DNA of 32,000 nt from a virus (IMGVR_UViG_3300002461_001027:1-32000); one strand, 5' to 3'; positions 1 to 31,756 are shown, counted from the first letter of the stretch. The notes: generated from the sequence alone by a model not told the origin. Numbers and translations are program-made.

Positions 1-536
1 TGGAAGGGGGAGTTCGAGTGGAAGTTCGTGCCAGCGAGCATGCCACCGGAGGAAACGCTCGACGCGAACACCCACGACACAGCCGACTCGGGGTTCACGC
101 CAGACGAGTCGGCCCCGAAGGCGAGGGTCGGTCCGATGTTGTTCACCCCATCGGGCGACGTCAGGTAGATGGCGTGACGCGGCTTGTTCGTGGACACGTT
201 GTAGCCGCTCCCAAACACGACGAGGCCGACGCCTGCGTCCGGATTGCGGATGGGCTCGCCCGCGTAGATGGTGCCCCGGCCATTGAAGACGCCGCCGTCG
301 TACCAGTACGACGAGCCGCCACCACCGAAGGTCTGCCATGCCGTGCCGTTGTTGTACTTCGGCGCGTTGGTGTCCGTGTCGTAGATGAGCGCGCCTTCGA
401 TGGTGGCGCTGCTCGCGGGCAGCCCAGCCGTGGTGCTGTGGCCGAGCTTGAACATGGTGCCGAGCGTCGCCTGCGAGAAAGCGAACGCACTGGTGAGCAG
501 CAGGAGGGCGAGGAGAATGCGGAGTCGAGGAGTCAT
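1..536 (-). CDS. secreted Gly/Asn-rich beta-protein, 3' end beyond window (fibre/adhesin-like, function unknown)
   Basis: Absent from the track because it runs off the window. ATG 536..534 lies in palindrome copy 530..541. I checked every minus-frame triplet down to position 3 and found no stop. Third positions are almost all G/C. N-terminus MTPRLRILLALLLLTSAFAFSQA is a Sec-type signal peptide. Confidence 0.75.
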   Translation of the reverse strand, partial: MTPRLRILLALLLLTSAFAFSQATLGTMFKLGHSTTAGLPASSATIEGALIYDTDTNAPKYNNGTAWQTFGGGGSSYWYDGGVFNGRGTIYAGEPIRNPDAGVGLVVFGSGYNVSTNKPRHAIYLTSPDGVNNIGPTLAFGADSSGVNPESAVSWVFASSVSSGGMLAGTNFHSNSPF

Positions 537-541
537 GACTT
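530..541. repeat. palindrome copy GAGTCATGACTT (11/12)
   Basis: Central ATG (minus strand) is the start of CDS 1..536. Confidence 0.9.
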
Positions 542-548
542 GGACCTT

Positions 549-1985
549 TCAGCGCGTGATGACGGAGTTGAGTGGGCTGACGATGACCTGAGGCGCAGGC
601 AAGCCCGTGAGGAAGCTGAAGGTGTACGCGGTGCCATCGATGAGCAATTCGTTGGTCACCGTGGAAAAGGCCGGAGACGTGCCGTCAAACAGGACGCGTC
701 CACCGTTTCTCACGTTCACGGCCGTCGTGCATGACTCGAAGACCCACGCCGAGAGCGCATAGCTCTGCCCGATGTCGACACGCACGCCCTCGGAGCAACC
801 CTCGATACGGTTTGTCAGCGTGCTGCTGGAGCGGTACGTGAAGTTGGGCGGCTGCAGAGCGCTACTGCGCAGGCCCGACGCGACGCCGACGCCTGCTGAC
901 GTGCAGTAGACCCATGACCCGCTGACCGGCGACGTCACACCGCTGCCCGGGAGAGACAGCACGGGGTTGAGCCCGCCGTTGCCCGGGGCTCGGAAGATGC
1001 TCTCGGAGTAGAATGGACCGATGCCGTTGTTGACCTGTACGGGGTCCACGTACGTGACGGCCGAGCTACCAGCAGCGAGCGCTTCGACGAGTGAACTCGT
1101 CGCGAAAATCGAGGGGGAGAACACCGGCAACACCGAAGACCACACAACGGCCAGCGCGACACCGCTCGCTGAAGTCGAGGTGACGAAGCTGCGTGAGATG
1201 GTGACGAGCCCCGAGACCGAGACCACAGGCACTGGCGCGCTGACAGTGCATTCGCGCACCGTGATGTTCGCGCTCGTCCCCCACTCGGTCCGCACGGCGG
1301 TCGCTGCTGCGCCAGCGAAGCCGATGCGCGAGATGATGACGTTGCCGGGGCCTAGCACGTTCCGAAAGGTCAAGAGGTTGCTGAAGGTCGCGCTCGGCAC
1401 CTGAACTGCGTATGTCACGCCAACCACCAGCGCCGTGCGCCGGGGGATGGTCACGGCGGTGCCCGTGTTCGTGTCGATGGGGAAGGCCTGTCCGTTGGCG
1501 GCTCCCGACGTCACCGAGAAGAGCTTTCCGTGCAGGTCGCTCGACGTCCACGTCTGCGTCGAGTCGACGACGCTCTGCGGCCCTGCGGCAGCACTGCCAG
1601 CCACGCTGCTCGTGACAGAGCCTGTCACGCTTCCCGTCGCGAGGGTCGCGTTCGTGAGCGTCCCCGCGATGGTGAGCGTGGCGCCTTCGAGCGTGATGTT
1701 CTGCAGGGTCGCTGCGGTCGCGTACGTGCCCGCTGCGACGTTGATGGTGACGTTGTGGCGGATGAAGCGGGGCAGCTTCGCGAAGACGCCGTTCAACGTC
1801 AGGCAGGCTTCGGCGCCACTCGCCGTACAGGCGTTCGAGTCGCTGCCTGTGGGAGCGACGTAGAAGGTGAGGGCGGAGTACGTCTGGTAGGCGCGCTTCT
1901 TGAGGGCGCCACCACGCGTGACAACAGGCTGAGCCGAAGCCCAGCCCGCGAGGATCAACACGAGAACTGCCAGAGTGCGAGTCAT
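549..1985 (-). CDS. secreted repeat-rich protein, parallel beta-helix-like (spike/fibre-like)
   Basis: Track ORF 549..2120 trimmed to ATG 1985 inside exact palindrome 1979..1990. The discarded 45 codons are Arg/Ser-rich and overlap the neighbour. MTRTLAVLVLILAGWASAQP is a signal peptide, followed by T/A/G/V/N repeats such as NVTINVAAGTYATAATLQNITLEGATLTIAG. Confidence 0.8.
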   Translation of the reverse strand: MTRTLAVLVLILAGWASAQPVVTRGGALKKRAYQTYSALTFYVAPTGSDSNACTASGAEACLTLNGVFAKLPRFIRHNVTINVAAGTYATAATLQNITLEGATLTIAGTLTNATLATGSVTGSVTSSVAGSAAAGPQSVVDSTQTWTSSDLHGKLFSVTSGAANGQAFPIDTNTGTAVTIPRRTALVVGVTYAVQVPSATFSNLLTFRNVLGPGNVIISRIGFAGAAATAVRTEWGTSANITVRECTVSAPVPVVSVSGLVTISRSFVTSTSASGVALAVVWSSVLPVFSPSIFATSSLVEALAAGSSAVTYVDPVQVNNGIGPFYSESIFRAPGNGGLNPVLSLPGSGVTSPVSGSWVYCTSAGVGVASGLRSSALQPPNFTYRSSSTLTNRIEGCSEGVRVDIGQSYALSAWVFESCTTAVNVRNGGRVLFDGTSPAFSTVTNELLIDGTAYTFSFLTGLPAPQVIVSPLNSVITR

Positions 1986-1990
1986 GACTC
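1979..1990. repeat. palindrome copy GAGTCATGACTC (exact; 14 bp as CGAGTCATGACTCG)
   Basis: Central ATG is the start of CDS 549..1985. Confidence 0.95.
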
Positions 1991-2013
1991 GCGAGGGTAC
2001 TACAAGTGCCGTC

Positions 2014-30796: not shown

Positions 30797-30801
30797 GACT
30801 C
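30790..30801. repeat. palindrome copy GAGTCATGACTC (exact)
   Basis: Central ATG is the start of 30539..30796. The TGA of 30800..31387 overlaps its upstream arm. Confidence 0.95.
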
Positions 30802-31387
30802 AGGCCACCGGGAACGTGGTGCTCGCCGGGGTGGCGACCTGCTCCTGCGCGCTGTTGATGGCCTCGTTGAGGTCGATCTGCTTCGCGGCCCCCGCCTCCA
30901 CCTTGGGCTCTTCGGCGGCGGGCTCCGTGACCTCCGGCTTCGGCGCGGCGGCCGCTTCCTTCGCCGCCTTGGCGTCAGCCTTCTTCTTCTCGGCAGCGGC
31001 CTTCTTCGCGGCGGCGGCTTCAGCGAGCTTGGCCTTCTTCTCCGCCTCCACCTTCTTGGCCGCCTCCTTCTTCTCGGCCGCGATGTCCTTCTCCAGCTGC
31101 TTGAAGCGCTTCTCGACGCTCTTCGCGTGCGAGTCGGCGATCTTCGCGCCGCTGCTGGTCAGCGACAGCTCGGCGCCGTGCACCACGGCCACGAACTCGC
31201 CCCAGAAGTCCTTCTCCAGCTCCGTCTTCGCGCTGGCGAGGTTCTTCTGCGCGGCGGCGAGGACGTCGGCCTTCGACTTCTCGGCCAGCGCCTTCCAGTC
31301 CTCGGCCGCCTTCATGAGCGCCTCGAACTTCTGCGTCGCCTTCGCGAACTGCGTGAACCCGGCCTTCATCTTCTTCGTCTTCGACAT
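30800..31387 (-). CDS. Lys/Ala/Glu-rich histone-H1-like / coiled-coil protein; first gene of the leftward gene block
   Basis: Track ORF. AAGGAG lies 7 nt upstream of ATG 31387. Low-complexity stretch is EKKEAAKKVEAEKKAKLAEAAAAKKAAAEKKKADAKAAKEAAAAPKPE. Confidence 0.8.
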   Translation of the reverse strand: MSKTKKMKAGFTQFAKATQKFEALMKAAEDWKALAEKSKADVLAAAQKNLASAKTELEKDFWGEFVAVVHGAELSLTSSGAKIADSHAKSVEKRFKQLEKDIAAEKKEAAKKVEAEKKAKLAEAAAAKKAAAEKKKADAKAAKEAAAAPKPEVTEPAAEEPKVEAGAAKQIDLNEAINSAQEQVATPASTTFPVA

Positions 31388-31421
31388 GGTGTACTCCTTG
31401 GTGCTGCGGGTGGTGCACGAG

Positions 31422-31450
31422 TCCTAACGTGCGCATTCGTAGTGTGTCAA
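31422..31450 (-). promoter_or_regulatory. candidate sigma70-like promoter for the leftward gene block
   Basis: Minus strand has TTGACA (31450..31445), a 17-nt spacer, then TTAGGA (31427..31422). Good -35, poor -10. Confidence 0.3.
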
Positions 31451-31498
31451 CCCCATTCCACGCTTGTCACTGCCCGCGCTACGTGATGAAGGCGCTGC

Positions 31499-31756
31499 AT
31501 GAGTCGCGACTCAGGGGCATCAGCGAAGATCATCCACGCCTGTCGCGCCTGCATCACGGGCTACTACGCCGATGCTCGACACGAGTGCACCGCGTTCTGC
31601 GGCATCGACTTGCCCTACGGCGCGCACCGGACCATGGGCCTCTTCTCCGTCGACTCCCTCAAGCGCATCGCCGAGGTGACCTGCGGTGGGTGCCTCGTCG
31701 GCCTCGACGCGTGGGTGCAGTCGACGCCTCGCGAGCAGGTCGAGTGGGGCAGCTGA
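31499..31756 (+). CDS. divergently transcribed small Cys-rich (zinc-ribbon-like) protein, candidate regulator
   Basis: The only plus-strand ORF not shadowed by a minus-strand gene. Mostly G/C third positions. Contains CRAC...C..FC and CGGC. The ATG overlaps palindrome variant GAGTCGCGACTC (31501..31512). It faces the AT-rich repeat region. Confidence 0.55.
   Translation: MSRDSGASAKIIHACRACITGYYADARHECTAFCGIDLPYGAHRTMGLFSVDSLKRIAEVTCGGCLVGLDAWVQSTPREQVEWGS
31501..31512. repeat. palindrome variant GAGTCGCGACTC (CG centre)
   Basis: Overlaps ATG 31499 of the plus-strand CDS. It is the only copy associated with the plus strand. Confidence 0.8.

Follow-up and report, generated by a model that had tools for sequence, protein, structure and literature searches.

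A start-codon-overlapping 12-bp palindrome repeated along a virus-like genome: a putative site array for a dimeric DNA-binding protein

Why should a virus-like genome carry the same 12-bp palindrome again and again, often with a start codon at its centre? We addressed this question in a 32,000-nucleotide stretch of DNA (the window), taken from a metagenomic contig of 103.9 kb and forming its left end, and in a comparison set of seven related genomes (relatives are labelled L002, L005, L006, L010, L012, L014, L015 and L016; L002 is a strain 99.6% identical to the window contig). The contig belongs to an uncatalogued virus-like lineage, probably one with a jelly-roll capsid. In the likeliest reading, the motif is where a paired DNA-binding protein lands to control or organise the genome as a whole.

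Abundance, symmetry and spacing of the motif

The window holds 11 perfect copies of GAGTCATGACTC and 9 more that differ from it at one base; shuffled sequences averaged 0.10 copies and never contained more than one. This confirms an earlier note's claim that the palindrome recurs beyond chance; the coordinates given there for exact, 11/12, centre-variant and degenerate copies (the last with GTCATGAC cores at 9730 and 28501) were all verified. The copies, listed without strand, and one associated promoter are as follows.

530..541, 11/12 copy, coding strand AAGTCATGACTC; the gene that ends at 536 (MTPRL...) is called from the central ATG
1979..1990, exact copy; central ATG starts 549-1985 (-), which has no recognisable SD
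2892..2903, 11/12 copy; central ATG starts 2014-2898 (-)
3997..4008, 11/12 copy; ATGA both ends 4000-4281 and starts 3572-4003 (-)
5215..5226, exact copy, intergenic; 11 nt 3' of a terminator-like hairpin (5237-5278, - strand)
7069..7080, one-mismatch centre variant, intragenic; coding-strand GTG centre at the near-exact midpoint of the 2.37-kb gene 5819-8185
8453..8464, exact copy; 8456-8719 (-) stops at its TGA
9728..9739, degenerate copy, coding strand CAGTCATGACCT; at about +1 of the next entry
9768-9741, sigma-70-like promoter (TTGACG-16-TACTAT) upstream of a tRNA pair
10321..10332, one-mismatch centre variant, intergenic; GTG centre, adjoins the start of 10159-10320 (-)
11883..11894, 11/12 copy; ATGA both ends 11886-12119 and starts 11629-11889 (-)
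12776..12787, two-mismatch centre variant; TGA is the stop of 12779-13174 (-)
14058..14069, exact copy; ATG starts 13180-14064 (-)
16068..16079, exact copy, intragenic; in a low-complexity, non-conserved segment of 15752-16696, the L016 ortholog (at 15412) being in another reading frame
18057..18068, 11/12 copy, intragenic in 17809-18507; a perfect palindrome in L002
20092..20103, exact copy, intergenic; ~125 nt upstream of the 212-aa gene, ortholog in 7/7 genomes; a conserved leader has its 5' edge here, and a -35-like TTGCGC (20087-20059) follows 4 nt downstream, putting the centre of the copy at ~-45.5
20865..20876, one-mismatch centre variant, intergenic; 5 nt past the intrinsic terminator (20921-20882) of the 215-aa capsid-like gene and left border of the HNH/EndoVII cassette
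22462..22473, exact copy, intergenic; ~110 nt upstream of the 195-aa structural gene, ortholog in all genomes examined; followed at 22430-22385 by a conserved hairpin that resembles a terminator and has a U tract
23395..23406, exact copy; ATG starts accessory gene 22562-23401 (-)
24756..24767, exact copy, intergenic; 4 nt upstream of promoter-like TTGACG-17-GAAGCT (24751-24723), centre ~-45.5, and downstream border of a 3-gene accessory block
26723..26734, 11/12 copy; joins accessory gene 26735-27049 and core gene 25801-26724
28499..28510, degenerate copy GCGTCATGACGC; 47% along the 2.29-kb gene 27294-29582
29576..29587, exact copy; ATG starts the 762-aa gene 27294-29582 (-); not kept at the equivalent junction among relatives
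30790..30801, exact copy; ATG starts 30539-30796 (-)
31501..31512, GAGTCGCGACTC copy with two mismatches; CG centre that offers no start codon; sits on the edge of the divergent control region and overlaps the first ORF of the + arm

Seven more copies lie beyond the window, at 32-39.6 kb on the divergently transcribed arm; copies number about one per 1.4 kb, a density that differs neither between the two arms nor between structural and non-structural regions. Extensions of the dyad to 14-16 bp, which the earlier note had also described, are present at 1978, 5214, 16067, 29575 and 20090, but the flanking bases are complementary in 9/21 cases, a slight excess over the ~28% expected, and so the element is in essence a 12-mer. 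A 14-mer, GGAGTCATGACTCC, was found in 62 contigs across IMG/VR, with a single occurrence in each; judged from this count, the motif is lineage-specific.

The core common to the seven related genomes is N-AGTC-RY-GACT-N'. The window, L006, L014 and L016 have G..C as its outer pair, L005 has T..A (TAGTC..GACTA) and L010/L012 have C..G (CAGTC..GACTG); the pair is homogeneous inside any one genome and switches symmetrically between genomes, as expected of a genome-specific dimeric recogniser and not of a purely structural constraint. The RY centre varies (AT, GT, AC or GC), a tolerance typical of the spacer in a dimer site. A purely symmetric DNA site does not predict the strand bias of the variants: on the coding strand, position 1 is A far more often than position 12 is T, GTG is kept 5:1 among the centre variants of the window contig, and the GT-versus-AC ratio is 7:0 in L006 and 1:5 in L012.

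Copies are evenly spaced in the window (CV 0.40 vs. ~0.9 by chance; p<1e-4, also when the null is a random subset of gene junctions). Under a looser definition of the motif, spacing is even in L006, L015, L016 and L014 too. In L005 and L012 the regularity is weaker or absent. The window has two genes above 2 kb, and each has a copy 47% of the way along; the L006, L014 and L010 homologs of gene 27294-29582 have a full copy 43-47% along.

Gene boundaries, start codons and conserved sites

Of 94 copies, 74 are at gene boundaries or intergenic; ORF interiors make up 86-92% of positions, and copies avoid them (per-genome p from 1e-19 to 2e-4). The central ATG/GTG had been said to start ten genes: by pipeline gene calls it starts nine window genes, or ten with the GTG at 20865 counted. 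Four window genes take their stop codon from the internal TGA, two of these copies also starting the next gene, and the copies at 7069, 16068 and 18057 are indeed intragenic by the gene calls. Start-centred copies account for 12/29 in the window contig (window plus a 7.6-kb extension), 8/11 in L005, 1/14 in L014 and 0/10 in L015, and the majority of copies in L012, L014 and L015 are not on start codons. The coding strand of L015 and L012 mostly reads CACG, with copies intragenic or 5' of an SD and ATG, those of L012 standing free upstream. The idea that the start codon is an intrinsic part of the element is thus not upheld across the lineage; held in some genomes and absent in others, the start-codon register is secondary. 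Orthologous copies are conserved regardless of reading frame: intragenic ones, including the mid-gene copies of the 762-aa homologs, fall in non-conserved protein segments and in differing frames, which suggests selection on the motif at the nucleic-acid level.

Two intergenic sites, upstream of the 195-aa and 212-aa structural genes, are kept in 7/7 genomes, roughly 100-135 nt from the gene in most (extremes, ~25 nt by the L015 gene call and up to ~225 nt in L012). A hot spot lies between the 215-aa and 212-aa genes, where L005 has a single copy and no insert, and the window, L006, L014 and L016 have 1-4 unrelated inserted genes with a copy on either side. The exceptions are L014, whose left copy is degenerate, L012, which has no left copy, and L015, where the bracketed 225-aa gene was later scored as a 212-aa homolog; the outer flanks are still homologous. 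All four accessory blocks in the window end with a copy. By our own tally, copies occur at 23/25 variable junctions vs. 10/44 tight core junctions, a contrast inflated because longer spacers give a copy more room.

Three copies of the window contig (20092, 24756 and 33905) lie 2-4 nt upstream of -35-like hexamers, with centres at ~-45.5, and TTGAC close to copies is marginally enriched (9/143 vs. 3.8% background, p=0.096); no fixed geometry of copies relative to promoters was found. Copy 35642 has a good sigma-70-like promoter ~40 nt upstream, and therefore lies within a 5' UTR. Several copies sit just past intrinsic terminators, opening the next unit. Leaderless starts are used by the element; at gene 33956, a -10 element ends 7 nt before the ATG. 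SDs are weaker at motif-start genes (-4.5 vs. -6.05 kcal/mol, p=0.047) and missing from several, which hints at a translation- or RNA-linked role.

Candidate readers of the motif

We tentatively favour the reading that the 12-mer is a putative recognition site array of a dimeric DNA-binding protein, exerting a genome-wide, stoperator-like control of transcription. Among the proposals of the earlier note, a regularly spaced dimer site fits best, given the symmetric outer-pair switches, the even spacing and the avoidance of ORF interiors. The recogniser would be a sequence-specific homodimer, probably element-encoded, and its sites would form a quasi-regular array placed where coding constraint is lowest, that is, at cistron boundaries. 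CATG being the preferred centre, a copy squeezed into a 0-10 nt gap would provide the next gene's ATG, the preceding gene's TGA or both; such copies in tight gaps would yield MT(P/R/H) N-termini, and the start-codon register would be a by-product of genome compaction rather than a function. By analogy with mycobacteriophage stoperators, bound dimers may block or insulate elongation at cistron boundaries, and where a copy adjoins a weak -35 (20092, 24756, 33905), the dimer may modulate initiation.

The enrichment, the dyad with its lineage-specific outer pairs, the placement at boundaries, the regular spacing and the frame-independent conservation of orthologous copies are observed directly; protein binding, the identity of any binder and the direction of its effect are inferred. 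A search for HTH proteins among the 51 window proteins detected none. A core 111-aa protein (30063-30398) gave a winged-helix-like predicted model (pLDDT 67), a weak assignment, with linker histone globular domains as top fold matches that were not significant (best Foldseek E-value 0.12). Ribbon-helix-helix-like proteins are encoded at 32050-33021, and in L005 an HTH_31 gene has a motif copy as its own start. The window also encodes a basic 54-aa protein of pI 12 (24512-24676), a 195-aa Lys/Ala-rich H1-like protein (30800-31387) and a conserved Zn-ribbon protein (23405-23650), whose resemblance to Com is our own reading and finds no support in Pfam.

The same array of dimer sites could instead be architectural, providing anchor or nucleation points to condense, loop or package the ~100-kb genome, a credible but unlikely alternative in which the basic proteins of the element might be cooperating partners. 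The spacing, far more even than chance, and the mid-gene copies in both genes above 2 kb suit such a role no less well than regulation. The uniform density and the presence of the pI 12, H1-like and linker-histone-like winged-helix proteins also speak for it; however, the regularity in L005 and L012 is weaker or absent, the fold matches are not significant, and the conserved leader-edge sites and -35-adjoining copies look regulatory. We know of no virus with sequence-specific condensation sites at such density. We think it distinctly unlikely that the motif acts in RNA, either as a start-codon operator for a translational repressor or activator (start-codon-overlapping operators serve T4 RegA, MS2 coat protein and Mu Com) or as an endoribonuclease site at which polycistronic RNA is cut at cistron boundaries, which can yield leaderless, AUG-first mRNAs. 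The ATG starts of the window contig and L005, their weaker or missing SDs, the retention of GTG in the window contig and L006 with the position 1 A bias, and the Com-like Zn-ribbon protein all speak for this, but single-strand recognition needs no palindrome, the L012/L015 copies mostly read CACG and lie upstream of SD and ATG or within genes, copy 31501 has a CG centre, and copy 20865 and its orthologs, being directly past a terminator U tract, would be missing from the terminated transcript. An RNA hairpin presenting GGAG and AUG, as previously suggested, is poorly supported: predicted energies are marginal or nil (-1.3 kcal/mol for the 12-mer, 0 for the AAGUC and L005 UAGUC...GACUA variants), L005 has no GGAG, and copies of L012, L014 and L015 are mostly off start codons, many with CACG.

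A compact promoter or initiator for a virus-specific transcription factor or polymerase, with initiation at or near the central A, would give leaderless mRNAs at start-codon copies and structured leaders at others. It would suit the copies that follow terminators, the 212-aa gene's conserved leader beginning at the motif, the -10 element at 9728 that places +1 on the central A, and a genome in which leaderless starts are in use and SDs at motif starts are weak or absent; yet we consider it quite improbable, since a perfect palindrome would fire bidirectionally, the motif has no conserved upstream element, copies also lie within genes, at stops without a following start or before a terminator (22462), and copy 35642 sits in the 5' UTR of another promoter. 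Very improbable, in our view, is a recombinational role, in which the 12-mer would be a short shared joint for swapping cassettes between related genomes. The bracketed hot-spot inserts, the insert-free single copy of L005 with its homologous flanks, the junction tally and the copy-ended accessory blocks speak for it, but numerous copies are at conserved core junctions or intragenic, even spacing and orthologous conservation point to a within-genome function, 12 bp would make a short site for a dedicated recombinase, no such enzyme was found nearby, and any conserved boundary sequence could bracket cassettes as a side effect. Hardly to be credited is a methylation or restriction site built of two inverted GANTC or GAGTC pentamers. 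Each window copy does contain two GANTC sites, and a copy-flanked HNH/EndoVII nuclease weakly matches a type II restriction-enzyme model (4e-7); however, L005 (TAGTC) and L010/L012 (CAGTC) keep the palindrome and lose GANTC, which contradicts methylation as a conserved feature, GANTC outside the motif is not enriched (~66 observed vs. ~98 expected by our own estimate), the nuclease gene is accessory and missing from most relatives, and such sites have no reason to avoid ORFs.

Comparison with known systems

Dimer-bound palindromes of 12-16 bp dispersed over large DNA domains include matS/MatP, SBS/SlmA, NBS/Noc and parS/ParB; matS (GTGACRNYGTCAC) and SBS (GTGAGTACTCAC) resemble our motif in the layout of half-sites and RY centre, whereas these chromosome-organising systems are host-encoded, 10-100 times sparser and not tied to gene boundaries. 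The dyads of Mu Mor/C-type late activators are centred at ~-43.5, directly upstream of a poor -35, much as copies 20092, 24756 and 33905 are, but they serve a handful of promoters, and most copies here are away from promoters. Conserved boundary sequences that bracket variable genes, and could mediate exchange, recall the linker sequences proposed as recombination joints in lambdoid phages, the PeSL of T4-type phages (a promoter-plus-stem-loop unit of 50 bp or more) and, more loosely, integron attC (57-141 bp, requiring the IntI integrase); unlike PeSL and attC, the motif is 12 bp long, and no integrase was seen in the 40 kb examined.

The start-associated sequences (SAS) of cluster K mycobacteriophages are short repeats in which ATG starts are over-represented and the upstream stop is sometimes included (PMC3203893). 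The contrast drawn with them in the earlier note is correct: SAS are asymmetric (GGGATAGGAGCCC), contain the SD, precede the start by 3-7 bp, always in the same orientation, and are restricted to the non-structural half of the genome, and our motif shares none of these SAS-specific properties (PMC3203893). Cluster O mycobacteriophages have a 17-bp dyad repeat (TGTTCGGNNNCCGAACA) at more than 30 places per genome, many intergenic, some near gene 5' ends and about one-third coding, with a variable centre, no orientation rule and a function that is unknown; Corndog 14 has two flanking repeats, and relatives a single copy (PMC4351075). Dyad symmetry, a variable centre and many intergenic copies are common to both, but cluster O repeats differ in sequence and length, are not tied to start codons, have no reported even spacing and belong to tailed actinophages, whereas our lineage is unrelated to these, with a probable jelly-roll capsid.

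The stoperators of cluster A mycobacteriophages (L5 gp71 sites) occur as tens of 12-14 bp copies over the whole genome, concentrated in short intergenic gaps by start and stop codons, and have been proposed to act genome-wide in transcription (PMC4351075, PMC12266134). They are asymmetric, oriented with transcription and found in temperate phages with a known repressor, whereas our motif is a perfect dyad, often containing the start codon and evenly spaced, and no repressor, integrase or lysogeny module was seen within the 40 kb examined. What the two have in common is a genome-wide array of short sites at start- and stop-codon gaps.

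Copy number, unit and genic context of the palindrome

We found that the perfect palindrome GAGTCATGACTC occurs as 11 exact and nine one-mismatch copies in the 32-kb window (vs. 0.10 in dinucleotide-preserving shuffles); allowing two mismatches adds copies 12776, 28499 and 31501 (named by window start coordinate; 31501 is the one window copy with a CGCG centre), and the GTCATGAC core adds 9730. Our recount of the window reproduced all the copy coordinates in the earlier note, together with its extensions of the dyad to 14–16 bp. We nevertheless take the unit to be 12 bp and reject the longer dyad, because complementarity of the flanking bases (9/21) is hardly over expectation and not clearly beyond chance. 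Selection acts on the whole dyad, since the half-site alone is not enriched: the window holds 94 GAGTC/GACTC pentamers, ~44 of them within motif copies, with ~65 expected overall by our estimate. Near-cognate sites are depleted in the window (1 seen vs. 5.6 expected), a depletion that the relatives do not repeat. At ~0.7 copies/kb, 104 kb would carry ~70 copies if density were uniform.

The core N-AGTC-RY-GACT-N' was found in all relatives examined (related metagenomic genomes, compared over 20-kb stretches sharing synteny with the window) at 0.5–1.3 copies/kb, and the 12-mer versions of the lineage include GAGTCATGACTC, TAGTCATGACTA and CAGTCACGACTG. The outer pair N..N' is G..C in the window, L006, L014 and L016, T..A in L005 (where TAGTCATGACTA accounts for 7/11 copies) and C..G in L010 and L012; its changes between genomes are always symmetric and each genome is uniform within itself, L015 being mixed. 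The centre is mainly CATG in the window, L005, L006 and L016, and mainly CGTG or CACG in L012, L014 and L015. The 14-mer GGAGTCATGACTCC is present in only 62 IMG/VR contigs, at one occurrence per contig, so that the motif is lineage-specific; a literature search with the 12-mer and its 10-mer core returned nothing but unrelated primer sequences. The recurrence is real and far from random, and a deep, uncatalogued lineage has conserved it.

Gene context was judged from pipeline gene calls. Across six genomes, 74 of the 94 perfect-core copies do not lie wholly inside an ORF and 20 are intragenic, vs. 86–92% of positions that are inside (per-genome P from 1e-19 to 2e-4); copies occur on both arms, beside capsid-like genes, within genes and in spacers. 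The window contig (the window plus its 7.6-kb extension) has 29 core copies in 39.6 kb, that is, 28 classified copies plus 31501, which overlaps the start of the first plus-strand arm ORF in a different register. The central ATG is the called start in 12/29 (two of these also give the upstream gene its stop, as ATGA), four give a TGA stop only, eight are intergenic and four intragenic. Three of these last four would be in frame as internal starts, which is not significant, the chance of an in-frame copy being 1 in 2 because the TGA in the motif forbids frame B.

The start codon had previously been read as intrinsic to the element. The start register is strong in some genomes and near-absent in others (8/11 copies in L005, 5/20 in L006, 1/14 in L014, 0/10 in L015). 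The copies of L012 and L010 are free-standing: they lie in spacers 5' of an SD and ATG and read CACG on the coding strand. The conserved function therefore does not include the start codon, and we abandon that claim. A CATG-centred site in a 0–10 nt intergenic gap must donate its ATG and/or TGA, and the start-codon register would be a secondary consequence of compaction. At 549-4003 (minus strand), several consecutive motif-started genes encode signal-peptide-like or transmembrane N-termini (MTRTLAVLVLIL, MTRFLLLLSLLA, MTPALLLLVLA); the predicted MT(R/P) N-terminus supplied by the motif would fit a signal peptide's positively charged n-region.

Orthologous sites, spacing and cassette borders

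The earlier note asked whether related elements keep the motif at orthologous junctions, and at some sites they do. Two intergenic sites persist in every genome examined, 5' of a 195-aa gene (copy 22462) and 5' of the 212-aa gene (copy 20092), both by gene calls ~100–135 nt 5' of the start codon in most genomes, ~25 nt in L015 and up to ~225 nt in L012. Intragenic copies are kept in place, though not in frame: 16068 and its counterpart L016:15412 lie at most ~10 residues apart in a non-conserved low-complexity segment (SHDS in one genome vs. VMT in the other), and the 762-aa gene has a mid-gene copy in L006, L014 and L010, degenerate in the window (28499), in frames that differ between genomes.

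The 212-aa gene has a conserved leader (19968-20091, minus strand, ~110 nt, with orthologs in L005, L006, L012, L014 and L016) with copy 20092 at its 5' edge. This leader contains a hairpin that compensatory changes support at 4 pairs, and then CCUCCAUCAGGAG, whose CCUCC...GGAG pairing could sequester the SD; it has no Rfam match, and an Rfam scan of the window gave two tRNAs and nothing else. After copy 22462 comes a terminator-like hairpin with a U tract, likewise conserved (22385-22430, minus strand). It lies between the copy and the 195-aa/215-aa structural genes, ~35 nt 5' of the start (~60 nt in most relatives), and resembles an attenuator or a checkpoint for antitermination before the structural operon.

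The most unexpected property of the motif is its even spacing. Gaps in the window contig average 1369 nt with a CV of 0.40, vs. ~0.9 for both random placement and random junction subsets (P<1e-4 each), and the biggest gap is 2853 nt (P~1e-3). When one arm mismatch is tolerated, copies are also evenly spaced in L006 (CV 0.56, P=8e-4), L015 (0.51, P=0.003), L016 (P=0.016) and L014 (P=0.036), and not in L005 or L012. Both window genes of >2 kb have a copy at 47% of their length.

Copies also border accessory genes. One hot spot lies between the 81-aa and 195-aa genes. At another, between the 215-aa (capsid-like) and 212-aa genes, L005 has a single copy and no insert; the window, L006, L014 and L016 have 1–4 unrelated genes between two copies (the left one degenerate in L014), and L015 is ambiguous, its bracketed gene being scored as the 212-aa homolog itself in a second comparison. 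The left copy lies 0–6 nt after the intrinsic terminator of the capsid gene in four genomes, and the right copy opens the conserved leader. By our tally a copy is present at 23/25 variable junctions vs. 10/44 tight core junctions, although longer spacers offer more room for copies; 4/4 accessory blocks of the window end with a copy. The same bracketing has one instance at Corndog gene 14, in cluster O (PMC4351075). The window's hot-spot insert is an HNH/EndoVII nuclease (20110-20745, minus strand) with N-terminal Zn-ribbon repeats and a weak PADLOC match to a type II restriction-enzyme model; this accessory insert between two capsid-like genes is present here and in L012 only, where the EndoVII homolog has no left-side copy, and it apparently behaves like a free-standing homing endonuclease.

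The element, its promoters and candidate binding proteins

The 103,928-bp contig that contains the window, at its positions 152–32151, derives from an activated-carbon metagenome (ERZ922817 k127_89534); samples with the element include SRR2905843. The window is 67% G+C, with nearly all genes on the minus strand to ~31.4 kb and a divergent arm thereafter. INPHARED phages and PLSDB plasmids gave no match (megablast, tblastn), and protein-pattern scans of IMG/VR and GTDB for the 762-aa and 215-aa families found only one 1.6-kb contig, in a Polyangiales MAG. Family matches were obtained for only a few of the 51 window proteins (two PG_binding, EndoVII/HNH nuclease, ART/PARP-like, DUF6283, and transglutaminase-like and SLT-like domains). 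The 215-aa protein (20973-21620, minus strand) is 60–94% identical across 47 metagenomic relatives, its neighbours 35–60%; its AlphaFold model (pLDDT 75) is a beta-sandwich whose best PDB matches, all weak (E = 0.02–0.1), are the jelly-roll capsid proteins of SPV1, PBCV-1 and SGIV and P23-77 VP16. Because it combines a lack of database relatives with this jelly-roll-like protein and with related contigs of 104, 100, 96, 87 and 71 kb, we tentatively assign the element to a virus-like lineage of ~100 kb that is undescribed and probably tailless. The 212-aa product of the neighbouring gene (19329-19967) is a possible second capsid protein.

Promoter and tRNA features of the window contig:
33919-33948, plus strand: sigma-70-like promoter consensus TTGACAAGCGTGGTAG...TGc-TAnnnC (extended -10 type)
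35574-35603, plus strand: same consensus
36314-36343, plus strand: same consensus
9184-9338, minus strand: two adjacent tRNA genes, one tRNA-Ile(AAU), the other assigned no anticodon by ARAGORN

The promoter consensus is repeated at L014:10747 and occurs in weaker form at 22548 and 9768. At 33919 its -10 ends 7 nt before the ATG of a gene (33956-34252) that has no SD and is probably translated from a leaderless mRNA. The tRNA pair is preceded by the window's best sigma-70-like promoter (9768-9741), and the pipeline's plus-strand gene 9261-9548 is probably spurious because it overlaps the tRNAs.

A 54-aa protein of pI 12 (24512-24676, minus strand), conserved in relatives, resembles protamine, and a 195-aa protein (30800-31387, minus strand) ends in a Lys/Ala-rich, histone H1-like tail; both might condense DNA. 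An 81-aa Zn-ribbon protein (CxxxxC...CxxC; 23405-23650, minus strand), conserved in all relatives, recalls in its layout the phage Mu Com translational activator, with no Pfam support. In the 762-aa core protein (27294-29582, minus strand), ~100 N-terminal residues (SFRRAVEGFVAAA...) precede a linker rich in Pro and Gln and a tail that is strongly acidic; on our own reading the N-terminus resembles the SAM-like core-binding domain of tyrosine recombinases, with no Pfam match. The small ADP-ribosyltransferase-like protein at 12779-13174 (minus strand; ART-PolyVal/PARP matches) may be an injected effector or host-takeover protein.

Pfam, PHROGs and PADLOC applied to all 51 window proteins gave no HTH, repressor, integrase or methyltransferase, and no repressor was identified in the 38% of the contig covered. 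The model of the core 111-aa protein (30063-30398; pLDDT 67) has three helices and a beta wing, and the folds that match it best, below significance, are winged-helix domains (linker histones, MukE, RTP, SSV1 F-93, MarR). By our sequence reading, two candidate ribbon-helix-helix-like proteins open the right arm (32050-32580 and 32593-33021), with a sub-threshold NikA-like match; a relaxed Pfam scan of 10 small proteins gave sub-threshold NikA-like and HEWD matches only. In L005 an HTH_31 gene has a motif copy as its own start. The 111-aa, ribbon-helix-helix-like and HTH_31 proteins are candidates for the binder. Covariation of the 111-aa recognition helix with the outer base pair was considered, with too few sequences to interpret.

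Readings of the motif and comparison with known systems

The balance of the evidence tips modestly towards an array of sites for a putative dimeric, sequence-specific DNA-binding protein, one of the ideas in the earlier note: the symmetric switch of the outer pair between genomes and the uniformity within each are what a genome-specific dimeric recogniser predicts, and even spacing agrees with it. The array's job could be transcription control of the stoperator type, an assignment that we make tentatively. Even spacing argues that coverage of the DNA matters, beyond individual promoters. It fits an architectural role at least as well as a regulatory one, although we consider the former rather unlikely. 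An RNA-level operator or processing site seems unlikely. The proposed hairpin of GGAG and AUG is poorly supported by folding, the 12-mer reaching only -1.3 kcal/mol and the AAGUC and UAGUC...GACUA variants 0, with only 14–16-mers at -4 to -8; GGAG is not conserved (TAGTCATGACTA in L005 is without SD-like bases), which argues against the SD-like explanation; and copies just 3' of a terminator U tract would be missing from the upstream transcript. An RNA- or translation-linked role nevertheless stays alive because SD pairing is weaker at motif-start genes (-4.5 vs. -6.05 kcal/mol, P=0.047; several, among them those at the 1979 and 3997 junctions, are without SD) and because imperfect variants and centres are strand-biased: coding-strand A at position 1 is commoner than T at position 12, and centres split GT:AC as 5:1 in the window contig, 7:0 in L006 and 1:5 in L012.

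That the motif is a compact promoter or initiator is improbable: although copies 33905, 24756 and 20092 lie 2–4 nt 5' of a -35-like hexamer (centre ~-45.5), copy 9728 lies at +1 and copies 35642 and 22462 at ~+35 to +50, so that there is no single geometry to the sigma-70-like elements and no conserved -10 or -35 at constant distance; TTGAC is marginally enriched beside copies (P=0.096). We also reject a sigma-54-like reading, as the distance to TTGC is inconstant (by 0–4 nt). Copies at nearly all variable junctions and the bracketing of cassettes would suit a primarily recombinational joint, but the longer spacers there give copies more chances, and we regard this as very doubtful. Methylation, also suggested earlier, is close to negligible, since TAGTC/GACTA in L005 and CAGTC/GACTG in L010/L012 show that GANTC is not the conserved unit; a small share of the probability goes to none of these readings. 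We would also entertain, as a long shot, a dual-life 'cistron punctuation mark', at once a DNA joint for cassette exchange and the end of expression units on transcript or template: accessory cassettes would be inserted and exchanged between related genomes at the 12-mer, and the transcript or template would be cut, or initiated exactly at the central A to give leaderless AUG-first mRNAs. If true, gene boundary, expression signal and recombination site would be the same 12 bp, evenly spaced on an unknown, probably tailless lineage of ~100 kb.

On the favoured reading, an array bound by a dimeric protein, the symmetric outer-pair changes predict a co-evolving binder whose specificity should be swappable by experiment. 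The motif also offers a handle for spotting these genomes in metagenomes, correcting gene starts and designing a binding or 5'-end-mapping test, in a lineage with ~70–104-kb contigs and a hyper-conserved jelly-roll-like protein that is absent from INPHARED, PLSDB and IMG/VR (protein scans) and almost absent from GTDB. To our knowledge, few viruses have genome-wide arrays of a single short site; where such arrays are understood, the L5 stoperators being an example, they reportedly revealed a new mode of regulation, and we know of no explanation yet for the cluster O and cluster K repeats.

A start/stop-doubling perfect dyad, a symmetric lineage-specific outer pair, even spacing with mid-gene copies and cassette bracketing are not known to have been reported together before. 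Integron attC sites are imperfect palindromes of 57–141 bp with an adjacent IntI, whereas here the site is 12 bp, with no integrase in Pfam/PHROG scans; cassette bracketing is nevertheless present. RNA hairpin operators of the MS2 coat or Mu Com type have a stable stem-loop at the start codon, and that codon in every functional copy, in contrast to the weak folds (-1.3 to 0 kcal/mol) and start-free copies found here (L014, L015, and L012 with its upstream copies). In CcrM/HinfI-type targets GANTC is the conserved unit, unlike in L005 and L010/L012. In a generic dimeric operator the half-site changes symmetrically between lineages, as it does here (G..C, T..A, C..G; uniform per genome). The cluster K SAS is an asymmetric 13-mer with an SD core AGGAG, placed 3–7 bp 5' of starts in one orientation and in the non-structural half only (PMC3203893), whereas the present motif is a perfect 12-bp palindrome with the start inside it; the distinction in sequence and dyad symmetry drawn in the earlier note therefore holds. 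Cluster A stoperators are asymmetric, transcription-oriented and bound by the phage immunity repressor, whereas this motif is a dyad with strand bias in imperfect variants only; like them, it has many genome-wide copies in short gaps near starts and stops (29 in 39.6 kb; 74/94 at boundaries or intergenic). With the cluster O dyad repeats it shares a short inverted repeat, a variable centre (AGTC-RY-GACT) and inter- and intragenic copies at genome-wide numbers (>30 per genome in cluster O), a likeness of kind and not of homology because sequence and host lineage are unrelated. The motif belongs to neither group, nor to the cluster K SAS; its nearest counterparts in kind are the stoperators of cluster A and the dyad repeats of cluster O.
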